Below are positions 1,237 through 10,552 of a DNA stretch of 43,250 bases, piece by piece; positions within the stretch are counted from its first letter, which is position 1, and every line of letters starts with the position of its first letter. Origin of the DNA: a virus (Duplodnaviria > Heunggongvirae > Uroviricota > Caudoviricetes); the IMG/VR virus record IMGVR_UViG_2654587569_000010; one strand, written 5' to 3'. The notes under the pieces were generated by a model that saw nothing but the letters and a program-made list of their open reading frames with translations, made no database searches and was not told where the DNA came from. Position numbers and translations under genes: made by a program.

Positions 1237-3399
1237 TTATTCACATAAAGATATTGATGCCAATATAAACATTGCAAGTTCGTCATATCTTATACCATAA
1301 CTTTCACAAAAGATATCTATATTTCCAGTCATGTGTTCGCGATGCGTTTTATCGTGACACCAAAACCCATACTTACTAGGATCAAGTCCGTGCTTCCTCA
1401 TTATATTACCAACAGTTTGAGCTCCAACACCAAAATGCCACCTAGCACCATCAAATCCCTTTACCTCAACAGAATCCAGCATCTTAAACTTTTTAATATT
1501 ATCTTTTATTTCTAGTGCAGCTTTTTTTTCAGCAACATCAATGTCTGTTAGTTTTGTTTTCAACATTTCATTTGATGTATTTATCATTCCTGTAGTTGCA
1601 TATATTGTTTTATATCTCGCATCCGGCCCACCAATATCAAAAGCATTATCAATTTGTGGTGTAATTTTCCCATAATGAAAGAATAATTCATGCTCACTAT
1701 TACCTATAGCTACAGTATTCTGAGCGGCAATTACCCCACTACCGATAGCTACTGCGTTACTTCCGGTTGATTTTGTATTATCTCCGAGAAGGACGCAGTT
1801 TGTCACATCTGTAGCCTGCTCTGACACGTTACCAGAATTAGAACCTAAAAATACATTGAAAGATCCAGCCGTTACTTTAAACCCTGCATCGAATCCAATA
1901 CCAACATTATCAGATCCTGATGCAGAATATAGCGCCTCGTAACCTATAGCTGTATTATTATTACCTAACGCGTTGAAACCCGACTTAGCCCCTACCGCAA
2001 CACAATACTGGATAGACACCCCCGTAGGAAAACTGGAATTACCGCCACGTAACGCATATTCACCAAAAGCGGTGTTCTCATTACCAGCACTGTTGTGATA
2101 CAAGGCCTGCACACCTGCCGCAGTATTCCCAAATCCTGTTTTGTTATACCTGTTAGTATCATTACCAATACCAGTATTACCGTAGCCTGTTGTGTTTGCA
2201 CATAACGCAAAAACCCCAACCGCTACGTTATCAGAACCAGATACGTTAGCTCTTAGAGAATCAGCACCGTATGCACAATTGTTTTTACCAGTCTTATTGT
2301 TTTCCATAGACTGAATCCCAGACGCGGTATTTGCGTATCCTGTAGTGTTTGAGTGCAAACTCTTCCACCCATATGCGGTATTGTTAGCTCCTACGTTTCC
2401 ACCGCCTAATGAGTCTTTTCCAGCGGAAGTATTAGTATCATTGTTTCCGCTAACATTAAAAATAACGCTTCCTGATTTAACGATGCTGCCACTTCCTGTG
2501 TTTATTACTGATGGATTGGAAGGAATGAAAAATGACCATGAGTCATTTACTGTATGTCCAGTGGTTGAAGAAAAGTTTATCTTCAATCCACTTACGAAAA
2601 AATCCACCCCACCTGCAAGTATTACGATTGGTTGCTGAGATACACTGTCATCGATTGGGTTGTACACGTCTATCGTGTCACGCCATGTAACTCCATTATC
2701 TGTACTGAATTCAAGCTTATCAGGATTTGAAGCTTCTTTTATTCTTACAATTGCATTTAGATCTTGCTGTCCATTGTATATTCCTGACACGGTCATGTCG
2801 TTAACACCAGAGCCAGAATATTTAGTCTGGTAATTAATCACTACTATGCCAGGCCCCCAATATCTCTTATTTAAGTTAATATTATTTACATTATAAATAC
2901 CATCAGGAATGTATATGTCATTGAATTCCGATATCTCTGCATCGTTAAATGCCTGCGTATTGTTTGTTAATCCATCACCAATAGCACCAAAAAAAGTAAT
3001 AGGCTTCGAAACACCACCTATCAATCCTGCTCCACCAGATGATTCAAGCTCCAACCTTAATTGATCCGGCTCATACTTCAACACATTAGGAAAATAGAAC
3101 TGCTGTGCACCATATGCGTCATAAACAGCCATAGAATGGCCTTGCACAGTTACGAACTTTGCAATCTGCCCGTTATATACCGGGTATCCAGCAGCGTTAA
3201 TGATGATTGGTTGCGAAACAGGAACGTGAGAGCCGTCTTCGTTCTCCACATAAACCTGAATCTGGTTTTCAGGATTTACCGGGTCAGTGTCAATTTTACC
3301 GATATAAATTTTGCCATTGGCTACGGCTTTAAAAGAACGCGCCATAGTGAAGAGTTGCGAAGGCATCGATACGATCACATTGGCTGTAATGTCTGTCAT
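1237..3399 (-). CDS. tailspike: P22 gp9-like head-binding N-terminus, Gly/Asn/Thr/Ala-rich repeat middle, C-terminal intramolecular chaperone (S74-like) domain
   Basis: N-terminal 115 aa ([11 protein letters not shown]...[19 protein letters not shown]...[12 protein letters not shown]) matches P22 gp9; C-terminus ...[22 protein letters not shown]... resembles autocleaving chaperone of endosialidase-type fibers. Confidence 0.8.
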
Positions 3400-4841: not shown

Positions 4842-5468
4842 TCAATGAATCCATTCCTCGCCGCGCAGTTTTGCCAGCATTGGCTGAGCGTTCTTTACGA
4901 CAAAATTGTTGGTATCAAGATTCTTCATTTCACGAAGAAGTGATTTCTTGGTTTCTTCTGACATGTAGCGAGTCTCATATGCAATATCGTAAATCCTTCC
5001 TGAAAGCTCAGAACCAATTTGCTTCATTCCTGGGTAGATGTGTTTGCACATTTGTTGACTCTTCTCCATCCACAATTGTAAGTAGCAGAGATTAACCAGT
5101 TCTTCGTCAGTAAACTGTTTTGCAATCGGTGAGCATTGTGCCTGCCGATCCAAAATATCCAGCACCCAACGGCGGAACTCTTTGGCTACCGGAGTGCGAG
5201 CAAACATCGCGATTAGGTGGGCACCGCGTAGTGAGAAAACTCGCACTTTTTTGCGATAATTTCCTGAGGTACTCACTTCGAGTACCTGAGTCATTCCGGC
5301 GCTAAACTCATCGCTATACTTGTTATAAATCATTGTTACTGCACGACTATTTGCGTATTTAAGTGCAGATGCAATATTAGATGATGTAAACCAAACACCA
5401 TGCATATCACGGGTGGGCACCAACTCAACTCCGTGGAAGTTGTAATCTGATTTTGCTACAATATTCAT
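4842..5468 (-). CDS. ant: antirepressor, Bro-N domain
   Basis: Track ORF trimmed to MNIVAKSDYNFHGVELV start (AAGGAAA SD); Bro-N-like N-terminus; sits downstream of arc as in P22 immI. Confidence 0.6.
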   Translation of the reverse strand: MNIVAKSDYNFHGVELVPTRDMHGVWFTSSNIASALKYANSRAVTMIYNKYSDEFSAGMTQVLEVSTSGNYRKKVRVFSLRGAHLIAMFARTPVAKEFRRWVLDILDRQAQCSPIAKQFTDEELVNLCYLQLWMEKSQQMCKHIYPGMKQIGSELSGRIYDIAYETRYMSEETKKSLLREMKNLDTNNFVVKNAQPMLAKLRGEEWIH

Positions 5469-5541: not shown

Positions 5542-5715
5542 TTACTGGGCATTAGCTCTTTCCTCTCTCAGGCTTTTAGCCAGTCGCTGCACAATCGCAG
5601 AGTTGATAGAAATTCCATCCATTTCAGCAACACGTCTAATCTCCTCCTTCATTCGCGCTGGCAAACGAAGCTGGAAACTTTGACTTTTACGACCTGTGTA
5701 AAGCACATCTTTCAT
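5542..5715 (-). CDS. arc: Arc-like ribbon-helix-helix repressor
   Basis: SFQLRLPARMKEEIRRVAEMDGISINSAIVQRL is an Arc/Mnt RHH fold; GGGAGGA SD upstream of ATG at 5715. Confidence 0.65.
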   Translation of the reverse strand: MKDVLYTGRKSQSFQLRLPARMKEEIRRVAEMDGISINSAIVQRLAKSLREERANAQ

Positions 5716-5742
5716 AAGTAATCCTCCCACAATGATGCCAAC

Positions 5743-5784
5743 TTGGTTCTAGAACCAATTTAACACCATTTATTTTGATGTCAA
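5743..5784 (-). promoter_or_regulatory. Pant-like promoter with overlapping operator palindrome
   Basis: On minus strand: -35 TTGACA, 16-nt spacer, -10 TAAATT, immediately followed by perfect 16-bp palindrome TTGGTTCTAGAACCAA (5743..5758), then SD and arc ATG. Confidence 0.55.
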
Positions 5785-5826: not shown

Positions 5827-6210
5827 ATGAGCAAGTTCCCTAGTCATGAAATGGATAGGTTCAATATCAGGCTTCCGGCAGGAATGCGGGATGCTATAGC
5901 CTTAAGAGCAAAGGAAAACGGCAGATCAATGAATACAGAACTAGTGTTTATCATTGATGATGCATTGAAGTCTCCGGTGCCTGCTGAGGTTGATAACTCC
6001 AGGATTATGAAGATTTACTCAAACCTCTCCGGGAACAGGCCATCAAACAAAGAAGAGTTTGAGCGGTGGGAGAATGAGCTAGTCAAAGCAATTTTCTACT
6101 TACTAGATAGCATCAGTTCTCATTCGCAAATGTATCAAGCTCTCAGGAGCTTAAGGCAAGATGCATATAAAAATGTTTTTGGCGATGATGCTGAAGACAT
6201 CCAGTTTTGA
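5827..6210 (+). CDS. RHH-domain regulator in the Mnt position (divergent from arc-ant)
   Basis: N-terminus FNIRLPAGMRDAIALRAKENGRSMNTELV is an Arc/Mnt-type RHH; 127 aa with extra C-terminal domain. Confidence 0.6.
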   Translation: MSKFPSHEMDRFNIRLPAGMRDAIALRAKENGRSMNTELVFIIDDALKSPVPAEVDNSRIMKIYSNLSGNRPSNKEEFERWENELVKAIFYLLDSISSHSQMYQALRSLRQDAYKNVFGDDAEDIQF

Positions 6211-6254
6211 AGACCATTTCATCTGGTATCCTGCGCAAAACTAAGGAGGTTGGT

Positions 6255-6644
6255 GTGAAGCGATTTCTTGCTGCTATGTTCTTATTCATATCTTTTGGGG
6301 CTACAGCAGAGTGCTGGGTCGTTGGAGATATGCGCGGAATAAGCTATTCAGAACGAAATAATTTCCATCCGGAAGAAGATGGTTTTAGTGGAACATTCAT
6401 CATTAAGACAAGCGGTGAAGATGCCAGCATCACATATTCTGGGACAGATGCGGGCGGCATGGCTTACAAAGCATTGTCTAAAAACTCCATCATAGGAATC
6501 GGCGCGAATGGCGAAACTCAACGCGTTATCGACTCATGGGTAATACATCCTACTGGAACAGTTTTAATGTCAAAAACCATTTCCGGTTATGGAAATATGG
6601 ATTCAACCAAAGCTTTTGTTGGAAAAGTAAAAAGAAAATGTTAA
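6255..6644 (+). CDS. secreted protein of unknown function (signal peptide)
   Basis: GTG start preceded by AAGGAGG SD; KRFLAAMFLFISFGATA-ECW looks like a cleavable signal peptide. Confidence 0.5.
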   Translation: MKRFLAAMFLFISFGATAECWVVGDMRGISYSERNNFHPEEDGFSGTFIIKTSGEDASITYSGTDAGGMAYKALSKNSIIGIGANGETQRVIDSWVIHPTGTVLMSKTISGYGNMDSTKAFVGKVKRKC

Positions 6645-6665
6645 TGATAGGATTATGGCCCTACA

Positions 6666-6851
6666 TCAACAGGTTCCGCGCCCCTGAGTAATTCTATTGC
6701 GGATTTGCTTTTTACGGTGGTTTAAGCTGGAGAGCTTTTCTTCTACTTCTGATATTTGCGCATCCAGATCTTTAAGCTCAAGATCTGAAAGTCGCTGGTC
6801 AAGCAGGGTTTGGTTCAACTCAATGTTGTTCAGACGTTCTTCTATGGTCAT
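6666..6851 (-). CDS. small coiled-coil protein (61 aa), hypothetical
   Basis: ORF track only; heptad-like LxxLxxL pattern. Confidence 0.3.
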   Translation of the reverse strand: MTIEERLNNIELNQTLLDQRLSDLELKDLDAQISEVEEKLSSLNHRKKQIRNRITQGRGTC

Positions 6852-6876
6852 ATTGTTACCTTAGTGGGAGGTTGGC

Positions 6877-7233
6877 GTGAATGGTCAAACAATCATCATA
6901 ATATTACTGAGCTTAATAGTTGCTAAGTTATATCCCCAAATCGGTTATATTTCCCTGGTTGTCTGTACCTTGGTGGTCTTGGTATACGGGATATATAAAG
7001 TTTTTTCTTGGCTATTGCGTTTTAATGCTGCAAGAAAAACTATTTGGATCATATTATTAGCAGCTATTGCAGCAACACCAGTGGGAATAGGGTATATCAT
7101 AGATATTTTTTACCCTTCAAAAACAAAGGCATGGGTCATCGTCATTTGCTTTTACATCGCAGGTGTTTTTTTATTTGCTTTTCATTGGTGCTTTGTAAAG
7201 ATTAATGAATACATATCAAGGGAAAAAAACTAA
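6877..7233 (+). CDS. small inner-membrane protein (predicted 3-4 TM helices), candidate superinfection-exclusion gene
   Basis: GTG start with GGGAGG SD; highly hydrophobic segments; occupies the sieA position of P22 between gene 16 and immI. Confidence 0.5.
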   Translation: MNGQTIIIILLSLIVAKLYPQIGYISLVVCTLVVLVYGIYKVFSWLLRFNAARKTIWIILLAAIAATPVGIGYIIDIFYPSKTKAWVIVICFYIAGVFLFAFHWCFVKINEYISREKN

Positions 7234-7256
7234 TATATGCCGTCCATGGCATTTAG

Positions 7257-9167
7257 TCACTTCTGTGTTGCCTCAGTGGCAAGCAGCGGTCTGATGGCAT
7301 TTGCAGCGTTACTTAATGCTCTTTCATAGGCTGGCGTTCCTGCTTTGGTGTTTGCCAGACGTAAGAGAGCATTCCTTGCTGCTTTGGACTCATACAAGCG
7401 CATGATTGCACCGAAACCAGCCTCAAGTCCCAGTGATACACCAAGGGTTGCAGTTGCGCCAATCGTTCTAATCCTGTTAGCTTGCGATTGTCCTGTCTGT
7501 GTTACTACATTTGCGGCGTCCGACCTTGCTGTTTGCTGTAGAACTTCATGAAGAGCATCAAGCTCTTTCATGTGTCTCCCACTGAATATAGTGTTATAGA
7601 TCTGACCGTCAGATTGCGACTTCAACTTATTTAACTCGGTAAGAAATTTTGTTGGCGAGTCTCCTGCTTTTTCTGCAATCTTGCTGATATAAGCAGCACG
7701 CATAGCGTTCTTTCCATCTTCACTAAGAGCAGGCCATATCCTCTTAATATCTGATGGTTTTCTGCTGAATACAACGCTGTTTATTATCTCTGGAGTAAAC
7801 TCTTTTTTAGCTTTGTTGAGATTATTCGCAATCCTTTTATTGAGAACCTTATTGAAGACGTTGGAGTAATCAGAGTTTGCTTTGACGTATCTGGCGGCCT
7901 CTCCAGCCCCCAAATACCGCGCTGCGTTATTCCTCAAATCTGCCCCCATTGCCCTCTCCACGGCATCAGTTGCGGCTTTCGCGCTATTAGGAAAAACCAT
8001 GGCATCCCCCTGAATACTTTCCCTCAAGGCTGACCGCAACTCTCTCAATAGACCAAAATCTATATCTGGTTTAGCAAGTTCTTCTCGCAAATCGGATAAC
8101 CCGCGAATCAAATCCTTATTTGCCACTTTCCCAAGCCTGTTAGCTCTGGTAAGTACGTTGTCGATAACCTTAATAGATTTTGATGTGTCAACAGGTGTGT
8201 CTCCCATTTTGGTTGTAATGTCTTCAATAACTCTTCCGGCCGAATCCTTCCTTGACTTCAGAGAACCATACAGATCGTCAACAACAACTGATGGGCTATA
8301 TTCACCATATTTCTCAAGCTGTTTTTTAACTAGCTGACTTCTTTTTGCATACTGCTCTGCTCGCTTTGATCCCGTCCCGAGCAAAGCCCCCTCAGCATCC
8401 TGAGTAAGGCCACGAGTGAAAGCATTTTTCGGCGGGATTACATCAGATGTCATTGGTGTCACGCCCATCGATTCTGATGTGGCAATTTTCTTCGCCACTT
8501 CTGGTGCAATATCACCTTTAAAGGCAGTTATTCCACGCTCAAGCCCTTTTGCAACAGTATTAACAGCACCACCTGTTAGCATGCCAACACCTATATCTGT
8601 TGCCAGTTTTCCCGCATCATTTTTCTCACTGTTTGCGGCGAGCGATCCGACTGCGTTTTCTGCCAGAAGACGGGCTGCGCCTTGAGTAATTCGACCAGCA
8701 AGTGTTGGCGCCTGAGTTGAAGCACCGCCAACGCCAACAGTAGCCAGGTAAGGCAATGCCTCCGCAAACACCCTACCTTCTGTCGTTTGTGGAGTCAGAG
8801 CACCTTGCTGAAGTCCAAACGCCTGCTCTAATCCCTGAGTTGTTACTCGTGGCGCTGGTTGATATGTTCCATCACCAATACCGAGTTTACCGCCAGCCCA
8901 TGCTGCCGCGCTTGTTACAGCATCGGCAACTGATGCCGGTATGTTTGCCACGTTTACGCCAGCCTGCACCAGTCCGCGACCAGTCTCTTTTACTGCCTCG
9001 CCAAGGTCAGACATAAATCCATCTTGCTGTTCTAAAGGCTGCTCTTGATTCTGAGTTGGTGGATTACTGGAAGACAGCATCCTAGCAATGCGGCGCGCGC
9101 CATCAGTATCACCTGCAGCATCAGCATTCCTTAACGCCGTCATCAATTGTTCACGACTATAGGCCAT
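7257..9167 (-). CDS. DNA ejection/injection protein (P22 gp16-like)
   Basis: 636 aa, position and size match P22 gene 16; Gly/Ala-rich. Confidence 0.75.
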   Translation of the reverse strand: MAYSREQLMTALRNADAAGDTDGARRIARMLSSSNPPTQNQEQPLEQQDGFMSDLGEAVKETGRGLVQAGVNVANIPASVADAVTSAAAWAGGKLGIGDGTYQPAPRVTTQGLEQAFGLQQGALTPQTTEGRVFAEALPYLATVGVGGASTQAPTLAGRITQGAARLLAENAVGSLAANSEKNDAGKLATDIGVGMLTGGAVNTVAKGLERGITAFKGDIAPEVAKKIATSESMGVTPMTSDVIPPKNAFTRGLTQDAEGALLGTGSKRAEQYAKRSQLVKKQLEKYGEYSPSVVVDDLYGSLKSRKDSAGRVIEDITTKMGDTPVDTSKSIKVIDNVLTRANRLGKVANKDLIRGLSDLREELAKPDIDFGLLRELRSALRESIQGDAMVFPNSAKAATDAVERAMGADLRNNAARYLGAGEAARYVKANSDYSNVFNKVLNKRIANNLNKAKKEFTPEIINSVVFSRKPSDIKRIWPALSEDGKNAMRAAYISKIAEKAGDSPTKFLTELNKLKSQSDGQIYNTIFSGRHMKELDALHEVLQQTARSDAANVVTQTGQSQANRIRTIGATATLGVSLGLEAGFGAIMRLYESKAARNALLRLANTKAGTPAYERALSNAANAIRPLLATEATQK

Positions 9168-10552
9168 TACTGCCCTCCGAGATATTTGCTAATTAATTCG
9201 TCATCGGACAATTGCTGTTGAGGTTGGCTATCGCCATAACTTGAGGAAAGAAAACGTTTTGCCGCAGAGTTCAATGATTCACCCTTCTTAACATCCATCC
9301 CCATGATGTTTCGGTTGCGATCAGATTGTCCTGGGCTGCCGTTTGCACTCATCCACTCTGACCTAAACTCGTTGAACTTCGCGTTATTACTTTCCATTTT
9401 TGCCATACCCCTTAACCATCGAGCCATGACCATTGGATTATCCGTTTCGCTTGGAATGCCTTTCCTTGCAAACTCAATATCCTTATCTGATGCAGGGCCG
9501 GGAGGGAGAAGCTTGGTTGCCTGCGCATTGGCTAGTTGGTTGAATCTAATCCGCATATCTCGGAGGTAGTTATCTTGCCCCGTAAGCTTAGCGAACATAT
9601 TTTCAGCGTTACCGAACAAACCAGGAGTTGGCTTCTCCTTCTCCAGCGTGTCAGCAAGCGTTGTCATTGAATCGGCAGCATTACGACTAGCTGCCGCATC
9701 ACCTGCTGATTTTTCTATAGCCTTTTCCATGTTCACGGATAGTTTTGGCGCAGCATTAATAAGTTCATCGGCCTTCTTTTGTGCCTGTTGTACTTCAAAA
9801 CCGAATTTCTGCTTATCAAGTGCCAGTCTTTCTGCTGCAAGTCCGTGTCCAGTCATTGCTGACTGATAGGAAAGGTTTTGCCCTCTCGCCTGAAGTGCCT
9901 CGCCAGCCTGATTGCTGCGGATTGTCTCTGCCAGTCTGCCTCTGTCAATCTCACGACCAACCATCTTATCCTGATAATCCAGCATTTTATCCGGACCAAC
10001 AGCCCCTAGCGTCATAGTAGTCAGCATGTGTGATAGCTGCTCTGGATTCTGAATACCTGTCTGAATCATCCAGTCAGCATTCGCCCCCACGCGATTTAAC
10101 CTGTCCTTGTTGTCAGTAATGAATTTACTGTAGGCTTCCGGTCCCTGAGAAAGAGCGACGTTAGCCCTCATGGCTAAATCGCCCATATCGTTGCGTTGCT
10201 GATCATTAAGACCGGAAAACGCCTGTTGTGCCTGTGCAACAAACGCTGGATTTTCCTGGGCAAACTTAAATAGTCCCGATGGATCACCAGAAGCCCATGC
10301 ATCAGCGTGAACCTTATTGAACGCACTAATAGCTTTCTGTTGCTGTTCCTGATTGTAAATATCAGCAACTCCAGCCAGACCACGTAACGCGGTCAGGCCA
10401 ACGTTATTTGCACCTGAGCGAGCCAGTTCATTGTTTTCGCGGATCAGACCAAGCGTTGCGTTAATGTCGCTTGCCTTTGGCGCATTCTCATTTTGCGTAC
10501 CGATGCCAGCCAGAAAACCACCAGAATTAATACCCTGTTGCCACGTAGCCAT
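9167..10552 (-). CDS. DNA ejection protein (P22 gp20-like)
   Basis: 461 aa, synteny with P22 gene 20. Confidence 0.75.

Follow-up and report, generated by a model that had tools for sequence, protein, structure and literature searches.

A Hex-family gene and two further small genes lie in the sieA position of a P22-like prophage

The window, i.e., the whole stretch of DNA analysed here (43,250 nucleotides; IMG/VR record IMGVR_UViG_2654587569_000010), contains three small open reading frames, ORF A, ORF B, and ORF C. They belong to a P22-like prophage of the Lederbergvirus type, whose late operon occupies the minus strand. All three are present at the positions given in Table 1, between the homologue of ejection gene 16 and a gene for an mnt-like repressor. 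The gene 16 product of the window is 98% identical to the "DNA transfer protein" of phage Emek, and the gene 16 homologue carries the P22-gp16 family annotation in E. coli. The order in P22 is 16 - sieA - orf59a - mnt - arc - ant - 9, and the order in the window matches it, which places the three ORFs in the sieA position, as a preliminary description of this DNA had proposed. That description also anticipated the predicted types of protein correctly, namely a signal-peptide protein for ORF A, a small coiled coil for ORF B, and a multi-TM protein for ORF C, as well as the orientation of ORF A and ORF C, which are opposite in strand to the late operon and each preceded by a strong Shine-Dalgarno sequence (SD). 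In comparisons with diverged homologues, the most diverged pairs give pN/pS ratios of 0.14 for ORF A, 0.13 for ORF B, and 0.19 for ORF C (29 synonymous versus 19 non-synonymous changes in the case of ORF C), and these ratios indicate that all three are real genes under purifying selection. Among 5426 complete E. coli genomes, 401 (~7%) contain pieces of the region. Searches with Pfam, NCBIfam, and PADLOC returned nothing above cut-off for any of the three; among the anti-phage defence models of PADLOC, ORF A has no match, ORF C has a weak one to PDC-M48A (E 0.005, 15 bits), and ORF B has weak partial matches only, to long SMC-type proteins (JetC, LmuB).

Table 1. Positions of genes and other features at the locus, in window coordinates
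Feature	Position	Strand	Remarks
arc	5542-5730	-	Beyond the mnt-like gene; ant-like genes also on that side
mnt-like Arc-family repressor gene	5827-6210	+	127 aa; Pfam Arc PF03869, E 1e-16; phrog_3178
sieA-type leader CATCTGGTATCCTGCGCAAAACTAAGGAGGTTGGTGTG	6220-6257	+	~38 nt; 5'UTR, SD, and GTG start; single exact match in the window, 0 expected by chance
ORF A	6255-6644	+	129 aa; GTG start, AAGGAGG 5 nt upstream; phrog_2651, E 9e-61
Predicted signal peptide of ORF A	6255-6308	+	Mature 111-aa protein from 6309
Hairpin with U-rich tail (AUUUUCUUUU) after ORF B stop	6630-6677	-	Possible terminator; -15.1 kcal/mol, z -1.8; overlaps 3' end of ORF A
ORF B	6666-6851	-	61 aa, 7 kDa; phrog_7586, E 4e-42; charged heptad-rich helix, conserved C-terminal Cys
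Truncated leader GGGAGGTTGGCGTG	6864-6879	+	SD and GTG of ORF C; joined to ORF B 5' flank at GGAGGTTG microhomology
ORF C	6877-7233	+	118 aa; GTG start, GGGAGG 5 nt upstream; four hydrophobic helices
Hairpin then U7 directly after gene 16 stop (...GCCRTCCATGGC...)	7222-7258	-	Terminator-like; -9.6 kcal/mol, z -2.7; found by the terminator scan
Gene 16 homologue (ejection protein)	7257-9167	-	Closes the late virion gene block
gp20 gene	9167-10552	-	Flank beyond gene 16

By tblastn against phage genomes, ORF A has near-identical copies in the Salmonella phages Emek and ST-35 and full-length matches at 28-29% identity in 434, lambda-imm434, Sf6 (gene 38), HK446, HK633, Sf101, and others, the gene of each of these distant relatives being situated immediately 3' of cI. 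A four-way alignment runs collinearly from Met1 through to the C-terminal Cys, and ORF A and 434 Hex, which are 30% identical over their full length, have the signal peptide, the ECW motif, and the C-terminal Cys in common. When 434 Hex was left out of a profile of the ORF A subgroup, that profile still scored it with 61 bits (E 9e-12 for a database of 1.8e9); the PDB contains no sequence relative of ORF A. Judged by its sequence, ORF A is a member of the family of Hex (phage 434) and Sf6 gp38, and it adds a new member to this little-studied family, so that the earlier statement that none of the three genes is recognisable was wrong in its case. The N-terminus of ORF A reads MKRFLAAMFLFISFGATA and then ECW (with the predicted cleavage between the two) and its C-terminus KRKC. 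Public annotations place the start of ORF A at an internal ATG (122 aa) and give ORF C 129-151 aa; the start codons adopted here for both are favoured by a conserved leader that terminates in GTG.

Like ORF A, 434 Hex and Sf6 gp38 possess a signal peptide, a mature (E/S)CW, a conserved Trp, and a C-terminal Cys, and each of the genes comes right behind a repressor gene for lysogeny, on the lysogenic strand. 434 Hex also has two cysteines, as does the ORF A subgroup. The genomic settings differ, however, in that 434 hex follows cI on the PRM transcript in a lambdoid immunity region, whereas ORF A follows mnt and the sieA leader in the late-gene region of P22-like phages. In the window ORF A starts 44 nt after the stop codon of the mnt-like gene, and in other prophages it is found without a neighbouring repressor gene.

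An exhaustive profile search for the ORF A family produced 126 clusters, nearly all of 120-140 residues and with end-to-end matches, and signal-peptide and cysteine statistics were taken over 80 aligned members. The presequence has a median length of 19 aa and a strongly hydrophobic core in all of them; K or R occurs within the first 6 residues in 77 of the 80, and Ala occupies position -1 in 63. A Cys at mature position +2 is invariant (80/80) and followed by W, Y, or F in 76/80, and a C-terminal Cys is present in all members except one (79/80). The number of cysteines in the mature part is always 2 or 4, with 4 in 44 of the 80 members and 2 in the ORF A subgroup. Presequence and paired cysteines together form the signature of a Sec-exported, disulfide-bonded periplasmic protein, and we infer a periplasmic location for ORF A. 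The AF2 model of ORF A is an 8-stranded beta-barrel (pLDDT 93.3), and since the mature protein is hydrophilic (GRAVY -0.31), a soluble barrel is favoured over an outer-membrane barrel. Fold matches of this model are generic, at 5-13% identity, and uninformative with respect to function.

Published work on the family concerns Hex of phage 434, whose gene shares a transcript from PRM with cI (Shkilnyj et al., 2013; PMC3564112) and is annotated as "repressor protection protein". The name stands for "heterologous exclusion", and according to that paper's account of a study from 1980, Salmonella lysogens of lambda-imm434 exclude P22 and hex mutants do not. Deletion of hex increases recA-dependent spontaneous induction about 30-fold in recA+ cells only, a purified 6-kDa form, "sHex", inhibits RecA-stimulated cleavage in vitro of the repressors of both 434 and P22, and cytoplasmic, presequence-less sHex partly complements the hex deletion, whereas full-length Hex is toxic on over-expression and could not be purified (PMC3564112). 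Within the family, exclusion of P22 and recA-dependent stabilisation of lysogeny have been reported for Hex only (PMC3564112), and the sole biochemistry points to a cytoplasmic role, i.e., to blocking RecA-stimulated repressor autocleavage (PMC3564112).

If this role were transferred to ORF A, a full-length Hex homologue linked to mnt as a repressor gene of lysogeny maintenance, ORF A would be a cytoplasmic "repressor protection" factor that binds a C2/cI-type repressor, blocks its RecA-stimulated autocleavage, and stabilises lysogeny, and exclusion would be secondary or indirect. The restriction of the deletion phenotype to recA+ cells, the inhibition by sHex in vitro, and the partial complementation by cytoplasmic sHex (PMC3564112) agree with such a role, but the cleavable signal peptide and paired cysteines conserved in 80/80 members argue for export. 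The Hex paper makes no mention of a signal, the periplasm, or a membrane, so that export was never considered in it, and the full-length protein was toxic and could not be purified (PMC3564112). In addition, the N-terminus of sHex, E43 of a 158-aa ORF, is exactly the first residue after the predicted cleavage site of 434 Hex (MIRIAALLSILLTTSANS and then EC, with ANS before EC), i.e., it coincides with the predicted signal-peptidase site, and sHex spans only about half of the barrel. We therefore regard repressor protection as quite improbable for ORF A. The published mechanism of 434 Hex, conflicting as it does with the export signals of the ORF A family, seems doubtful and merits re-examination.

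The leader of ORF A is identical to the one preceding the GTG start of P22 sieA. A scan of IMG/VR for this leader found 84 loci, and the ORFs starting at its GTG were sorted into 13 unrelated families. When IMG/VR matches, the window, and annotated loci are counted together, the Hex-like ORF A family is the commonest cargo (21 loci), followed by a 109-aa protein with an N-terminal TM segment plus coiled coil (18 loci), SieA (13), a 62-aa two-TM protein (8), a 116-aa four-TM protein (6), a 140-aa soluble protein (4), and seven smaller families, ORF C among them, with 1-3 loci each. Signal peptides or TM segments were found, by computation and inspection, in 12 of the 13 families. The cargo usually stops about 25-30 nt short of the stop codon of the convergent gene 16, a small hairpin of the form GCCATCCATGGC often follows it, and hairpins related to it are found behind many cargo genes, P22 sieA among them. 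The hairpin at the end of gene 16 (Table 1) is the conserved 3' boundary of the slot. This slot is a recombination hot spot with fixed flanks, and an exclusion protein is its only characterised cargo.

The region between genes 16 and 9 of P22-like phages has been described as the "ant moron", which comprises immI and unrelated genes without known function, varies from phage to phage, and is in rapid flux (Villafane et al., 2008; PMC2629481). Measured against the available parts of that account, the segment in the window represents one more variant; these parts were not found to mention the constant leader and hairpin that flank the slot next to gene 16, the prevalence of envelope proteins among its cargo, or the relationship to Hex. 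ORF A, ORF B, and ORF C are three independent modules in the hyper-variable slot between gene 16 and immI and constitute one further cargo variant of the ant moron. The view of the preliminary description that they form a single "three-gene moron" did not survive, as related prophages carry these genes separately and in other orders. A moron, as defined by Hendrix, is an insert that is expressed independently and brings its own promoter and terminator. Presence or absence and shuffling among syntenic P22-like genomes are clear for the segment in the window, which has no convincing promoter of its own and only weak hairpins at the 3' ends.

A tblastn search of 50,697 phage records gave no match to ORF C. 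Among 5.8 billion proteins it has three homologue clusters only, too few for an alignment-based model. The AF2 model places helices at residues 3-18, 20-46, 51-78, and 82-117 (pLDDT 72.6), the second loop being positively charged. In Salmonella prophages a homologue with 85% identity is the sole cargo on a full leader next to gene 16, which confirms the GTG start and identifies ORF C as genuine cargo of the slot. The ORF C of the window, which adjoins gene 16 and is convergent with it, keeps the last ~13 nt of the leader. ORF C is predicted, on the basis of its model, to be an orphan four-helix inner-membrane protein and an alternative cargo of the slot. Over the first 21 residues it is similar to the 116-aa cargo family, which is otherwise unrelated to it.

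A relationship of ORF C to SieA was considered and rejected, as BLASTP against P22 SieA gave an E of 2.3 and no similarity. In no frame of the window was the motif FxRYPxEAxxFNK or a tblastn match for SieA found. Homologues of ORF C nevertheless share with P22 sieA the leader and the convergent arrangement with gene 16, and both products are small polytopic inner-membrane proteins, in the case of ORF C by prediction. SieA is longer, with 164 aa versus 118 aa, and has a long loop that is missing from ORF C. With ORF A, P22 sieA shares the slot as well as an identical 5' leader, SD, and GTG, but SieA (types A-C) is an inner-membrane protein, whereas ORF A is predicted to be soluble and periplasmic.

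The leader of ORF C was recognised as truncated by comparison with the full leader and with the regions upstream of ORF B in the loci L014 and L002. In the related prophage L013, the leader and ORF A are followed by ORF B on the minus strand, a minus-strand gene for a P63C-domain protein, and a second full leader with a second cargo at gene 16; the same two-leader layout is present in L046. The order in the window is that of L013, but without the minus-strand cargo and with little left of the second leader, and at its junction the 5' flank of ORF B and the SD of the leader share the microhomology GGAGGTTG. The same arrangement, at 97-100% identity, occurs in E. coli NCCP 13717 and in the IMG/VR contig L079.

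From this comparison one might suspect that ORF C, and perhaps ORF B, are silent passengers stranded by a deletion between ORF B and the slot leader that took the minus-strand cargo together with the promoter region. The two-leader layout with its extra minus-strand cargo in prophages such as L013 suggests as much, and so do the short remainder of the leader (GGGAGGTTGGCGTG) left before ORF C, its joining at the microhomology, and the start codons of ORF B and ORF C, which are just 25 nt apart. However, the arrangement recurs in NCCP 13717 and L079, where ORF C shows 3 synonymous and 0 non-synonymous differences, read-through from mnt and ORF A is unobstructed, with a plus-strand fold at 6640-6700 no better than that of shuffled sequences, the SDs of ORF B and ORF C are intact, and 47 nt upstream of ORF B there is a promoter-like site (6926-6898). 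A remnant of this kind seems very unlikely to us, and we continue to treat ORF C as an alternative cargo and ORF B as a probable late gene.

ORF B is convergent with ORF A, from which it is separated by a gap of 21 nt, and it has 42 homologue clusters in Escherichia, Salmonella, and Serratia. Its length of 61 aa is retained down to 72% identity, including the Serratia copy, and its hydropathy profile contains no hydrophobic segment. Linkage of ORF B to ORF A or to any other particular cargo was looked for and not found, many cargo types being located beside it. In L001, L008, and L013 an intrinsic terminator (ACCCACC-loop-GGTGGGTTTTTT) is situated 11-12 nt upstream of the SD of ORF B, and the window has the terminator-like hairpin that follows gene 16 on the upstream side of ORF B. 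The hairpin after the ORF B stop codon is not significant by itself and was not flagged by the consensus scan. Late transcription of P22 crosses the 16-9 region to reach gene 9, according to the available parts of the account cited above (PMC2629481). Because ORF B is on the late strand, with a terminator directly upstream in other prophages, it is more probably expressed late than in the lysogen. From its sequence, ORF B is probably a cytoplasmic coiled-coil protein and a late gene translated from antiterminated late transcripts.

Other identities for ORF B did not hold. Comparison ruled out P22 orf59a, and matches in the PDB are coiled-coil noise. The score with the Pfam family XhlA (PF10779) is 14.4 bits (E 0.043) against a cut-off of 34.7 bits, ORF B lacks a TM segment, and only 3 of 15 homologues reach an E below 0.1 with PF10779. 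A short N-terminal coiled-coil segment, shared with Bacillus PBSX XhlA, gives the weak Pfam match, and "hemolysin XhlA family" is a label applied by PGAP to longer calls of ORF B (89-92 aa), the N-terminal extension of which is absent from the 61-aa majority.

A search for sigma-70-like promoters gave 3 matches versus 4.9 expected, which is no better than in shuffled sequence, and none stands out for ORF A or ORF C. The 44-nt gap between mnt and ORF A contains no terminator-like site and no significant fold. Given the shortness of this gap and the missing terminator, read-through from the mnt promoter appears to be the likeliest source of ORF A mRNA. The plus strand between ORF A and ORF C folds no better than shuffled sequence does, and so the mnt transcript could also run on into ORF C, although with the sequence upstream of its leader lost, ORF C may be poorly expressed here.

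In the mechanism we favour, lysogen transcripts starting at the mnt promoter would read through into ORF A, and the sieA-type leader with its SD and GTG would serve for its translation. The product would be exported by Sec, cleaved after ATA, and folded in the periplasm into an eight-stranded beta-barrel of 11.9 kDa, with a disulfide probably between the first and last strands. Superinfection exclusion of P22-like phages from the periplasmic side would be its most likely role, and it might interfere with the trans-envelope conduit for DNA delivery that is built of ejection proteins. ORF C could be an inner-membrane protein and a functional analogue of SieA, and ORF B would be reached by antiterminated late transcripts only. 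To our knowledge, no inhibitor of the P22-type trans-envelope DNA conduit other than SieA has been characterised. Interference with DNA delivery by P22-like phages, in the periplasm for ORF A and at the inner membrane for ORF C, is the best supported of the mechanisms considered and is suggested by the homology to Hex, the shared sieA leader and slot, and the predicted locations. The earlier nomination of these genes as candidates for exclusion gains support for ORF A, a homologue of 434 Hex equipped with the leader, SD, and GTG of P22 sieA; ORF C is no homologue of SieA.

Alternatively, ORF A and/or ORF C might be envelope factors of lysogenic conversion or host fitness, engaged in ligand or lipid binding, stress tolerance, or antimicrobial resistance and unrelated to phage entry; we consider this unlikely. 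Some observations count against the mechanism favoured above. ORF A neighbours gp16 types with 37-98% identity to the gp16 of the window, and a pairing with a particular gp16 type was looked for and not found among related prophages; this range gives no sign of co-evolution with a specific target. Distant members of the Hex family also occur at non-prophage chromosomal sites, and the fold is thus not specific to phage warfare. The best explanation as a whole is that of three cargo genes, with ORF A a Hex-type exclusion protein of the periplasm, ORF C an alternative cargo, and ORF B a late gene, and we judge its prospects of being correct to be about even.

A bolder reading, which we put forward tentatively and expect to fail rather than to hold in its entirety, would generalise from this locus. 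The ~38-nt leader and the hairpin before gene 16 would delimit a site of cassette exchange for at least 13 unrelated envelope proteins, all of them exclusion factors directed against the ejection-protein conduit; the Hex family would be periplasmic, and the published mechanism of 434 Hex would be an artefact of a presequence-less fragment.

If none of these interpretations holds, the region is routine prophage cargo. Two leads emerge from it, i.e., the discrepancy between the export signals and the published mechanism of Hex, and the cassette site defined by the leader. If ORF A and ORF C do block entry, they would be small, unrelated probes of one and the same machine, one acting in the periplasm and the other at the inner membrane, and escape mutants could then be used to assign exposed ejection proteins to compartments. 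By means of the conserved leader, more candidate exclusion genes could easily be collected from prophages.

The leader of P22 sieA, about 38 nt long with a terminal GTG, recurs in 84 IMG/VR loci, where the unrelated cargo ORFs behind it number at least 13, cargo being the variable genes between gene 16 and immI. Signal peptides or transmembrane segments occur in 12 of the 13 cargo families behind this leader, and the leader site looks like a cassette-exchange site with fixed flanks. A few bases 3' of many cargo genes, and immediately ahead of the gene 16 stop codon, a small conserved hairpin is found (GCCATCCATGGC and variants), which probably constitutes the 3' recombination boundary and a terminator for the late strand.

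Features of the cargo region in the window and in related loci (L-numbers)
Feature	Locus	Coordinates	Strand
Leader	window	6220-6257	
Leader	P22 (L003)	2829-2868	(-)
Leader	L009	about 5060-5102	
Leader	L013	4762-4801	
Hairpin	window	7222-7258	
Hairpin, cargo 3' flanks	L003, L017, L019, L025, L028, L047, L073		
Palindrome	window	5743-5758	
Predicted ant/arc promoter -10	window	5762-5757	
mnt-like gene	window	5827-6210	(+)
Terminator ahead of ORF B	L001	2693-2730	minus
Terminator ahead of ORF B	L008	2693-2735	minus
Terminator ahead of ORF B	L013	3614-3655	minus
Toxin-antitoxin/defence-like cargo	L001	2733-3606	
Toxin-antitoxin/defence-like cargo	L008	2735-3721	
Toxin-antitoxin/defence-like cargo	L009	3896-4920	
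Toxin-antitoxin/defence-like cargo	L013	1991-2994	
hex ORF	phage 434 (L004)	2429-2905	
Distant Hex-family gene	L099 (Trabulsiella odontotermitis)	5001-5396	
Distant Hex-family gene	L101	5001-5390	
ORF C segment similar to L019 cargo	window	6877-6939	

On the other flank, an identical copy of the mnt-like gene stands ahead of the leader in L047 and L074, where the leader carries two further types of cargo. The mnt-like gene product consists of an N-terminal Arc-type domain followed by a long C-terminal extension, and comprises 127 aa compared with 83 aa for P22 Mnt. The arc-mnt intergenic region contains a perfect 16-bp palindrome (TTGGTTCTAGAACCAA) immediately downstream of the predicted -10 of the ant/arc promoter, probably an operator of the Arc/Mnt type. 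Over mnt, ORFs A, B, and C, and gp16, a 37.5-kb IMG/VR record (IMGVR_UViG_2651869725_000012, L079) is 100% identical to the window at the same coordinates; the record is probably either the window's source or a duplicate.

Public annotations seem to mis-call starts at L002 (3063-3431 and 3631-4020), L007 (2507-2785), and L009 (5001-5456). ORF A is annotated with 122 aa from an internal ATG, ORF C carries 11-33 residues too many that are only translated leader ('GILHKTKEVGV'), and ORF B appears with 89-92 aa as XhlA family.

For the Hex family of ORF A, the published 434 fragment sHex begins at E43 of the 158-aa hex ORF, exactly the first residue past the predicted signal-peptide cleavage site (between ANS and EC) of the 134-aa protein; export is not discussed in the sHex paper (PMC3564112). 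Distant Hex-family genes occur outside prophages in L099 and L101; one shares an island with Ntox50, NUDIX, and PIN genes, its 5' part overlapping a 91-aa ORF that lies upstream, and the other is flanked by asd and leu genes.

In other prophages, only 11-12 nt lie between the ORF B SD and the end of a preceding intrinsic terminator, which is strong (ACCCACC-loop-GGTGGGTTTTTT); this leaves no space for a promoter before ORF B. Where related prophages carry cargo on the minus strand or upstream in this region, the genes often resemble toxin-antitoxin or defence systems, the types being Panacea/DUF4065 and partner, a P63C-domain protein, or a YafO toxin and partner.

ORF C resembles the 116-aa four-TM cargo of L019 over its first 21 residues only (62% identity, MN.Q..I...L.LIVAKLYP), the two families being otherwise unrelated. 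This shared start suggests either a point of intragenic recombination or a conserved N-terminal function.
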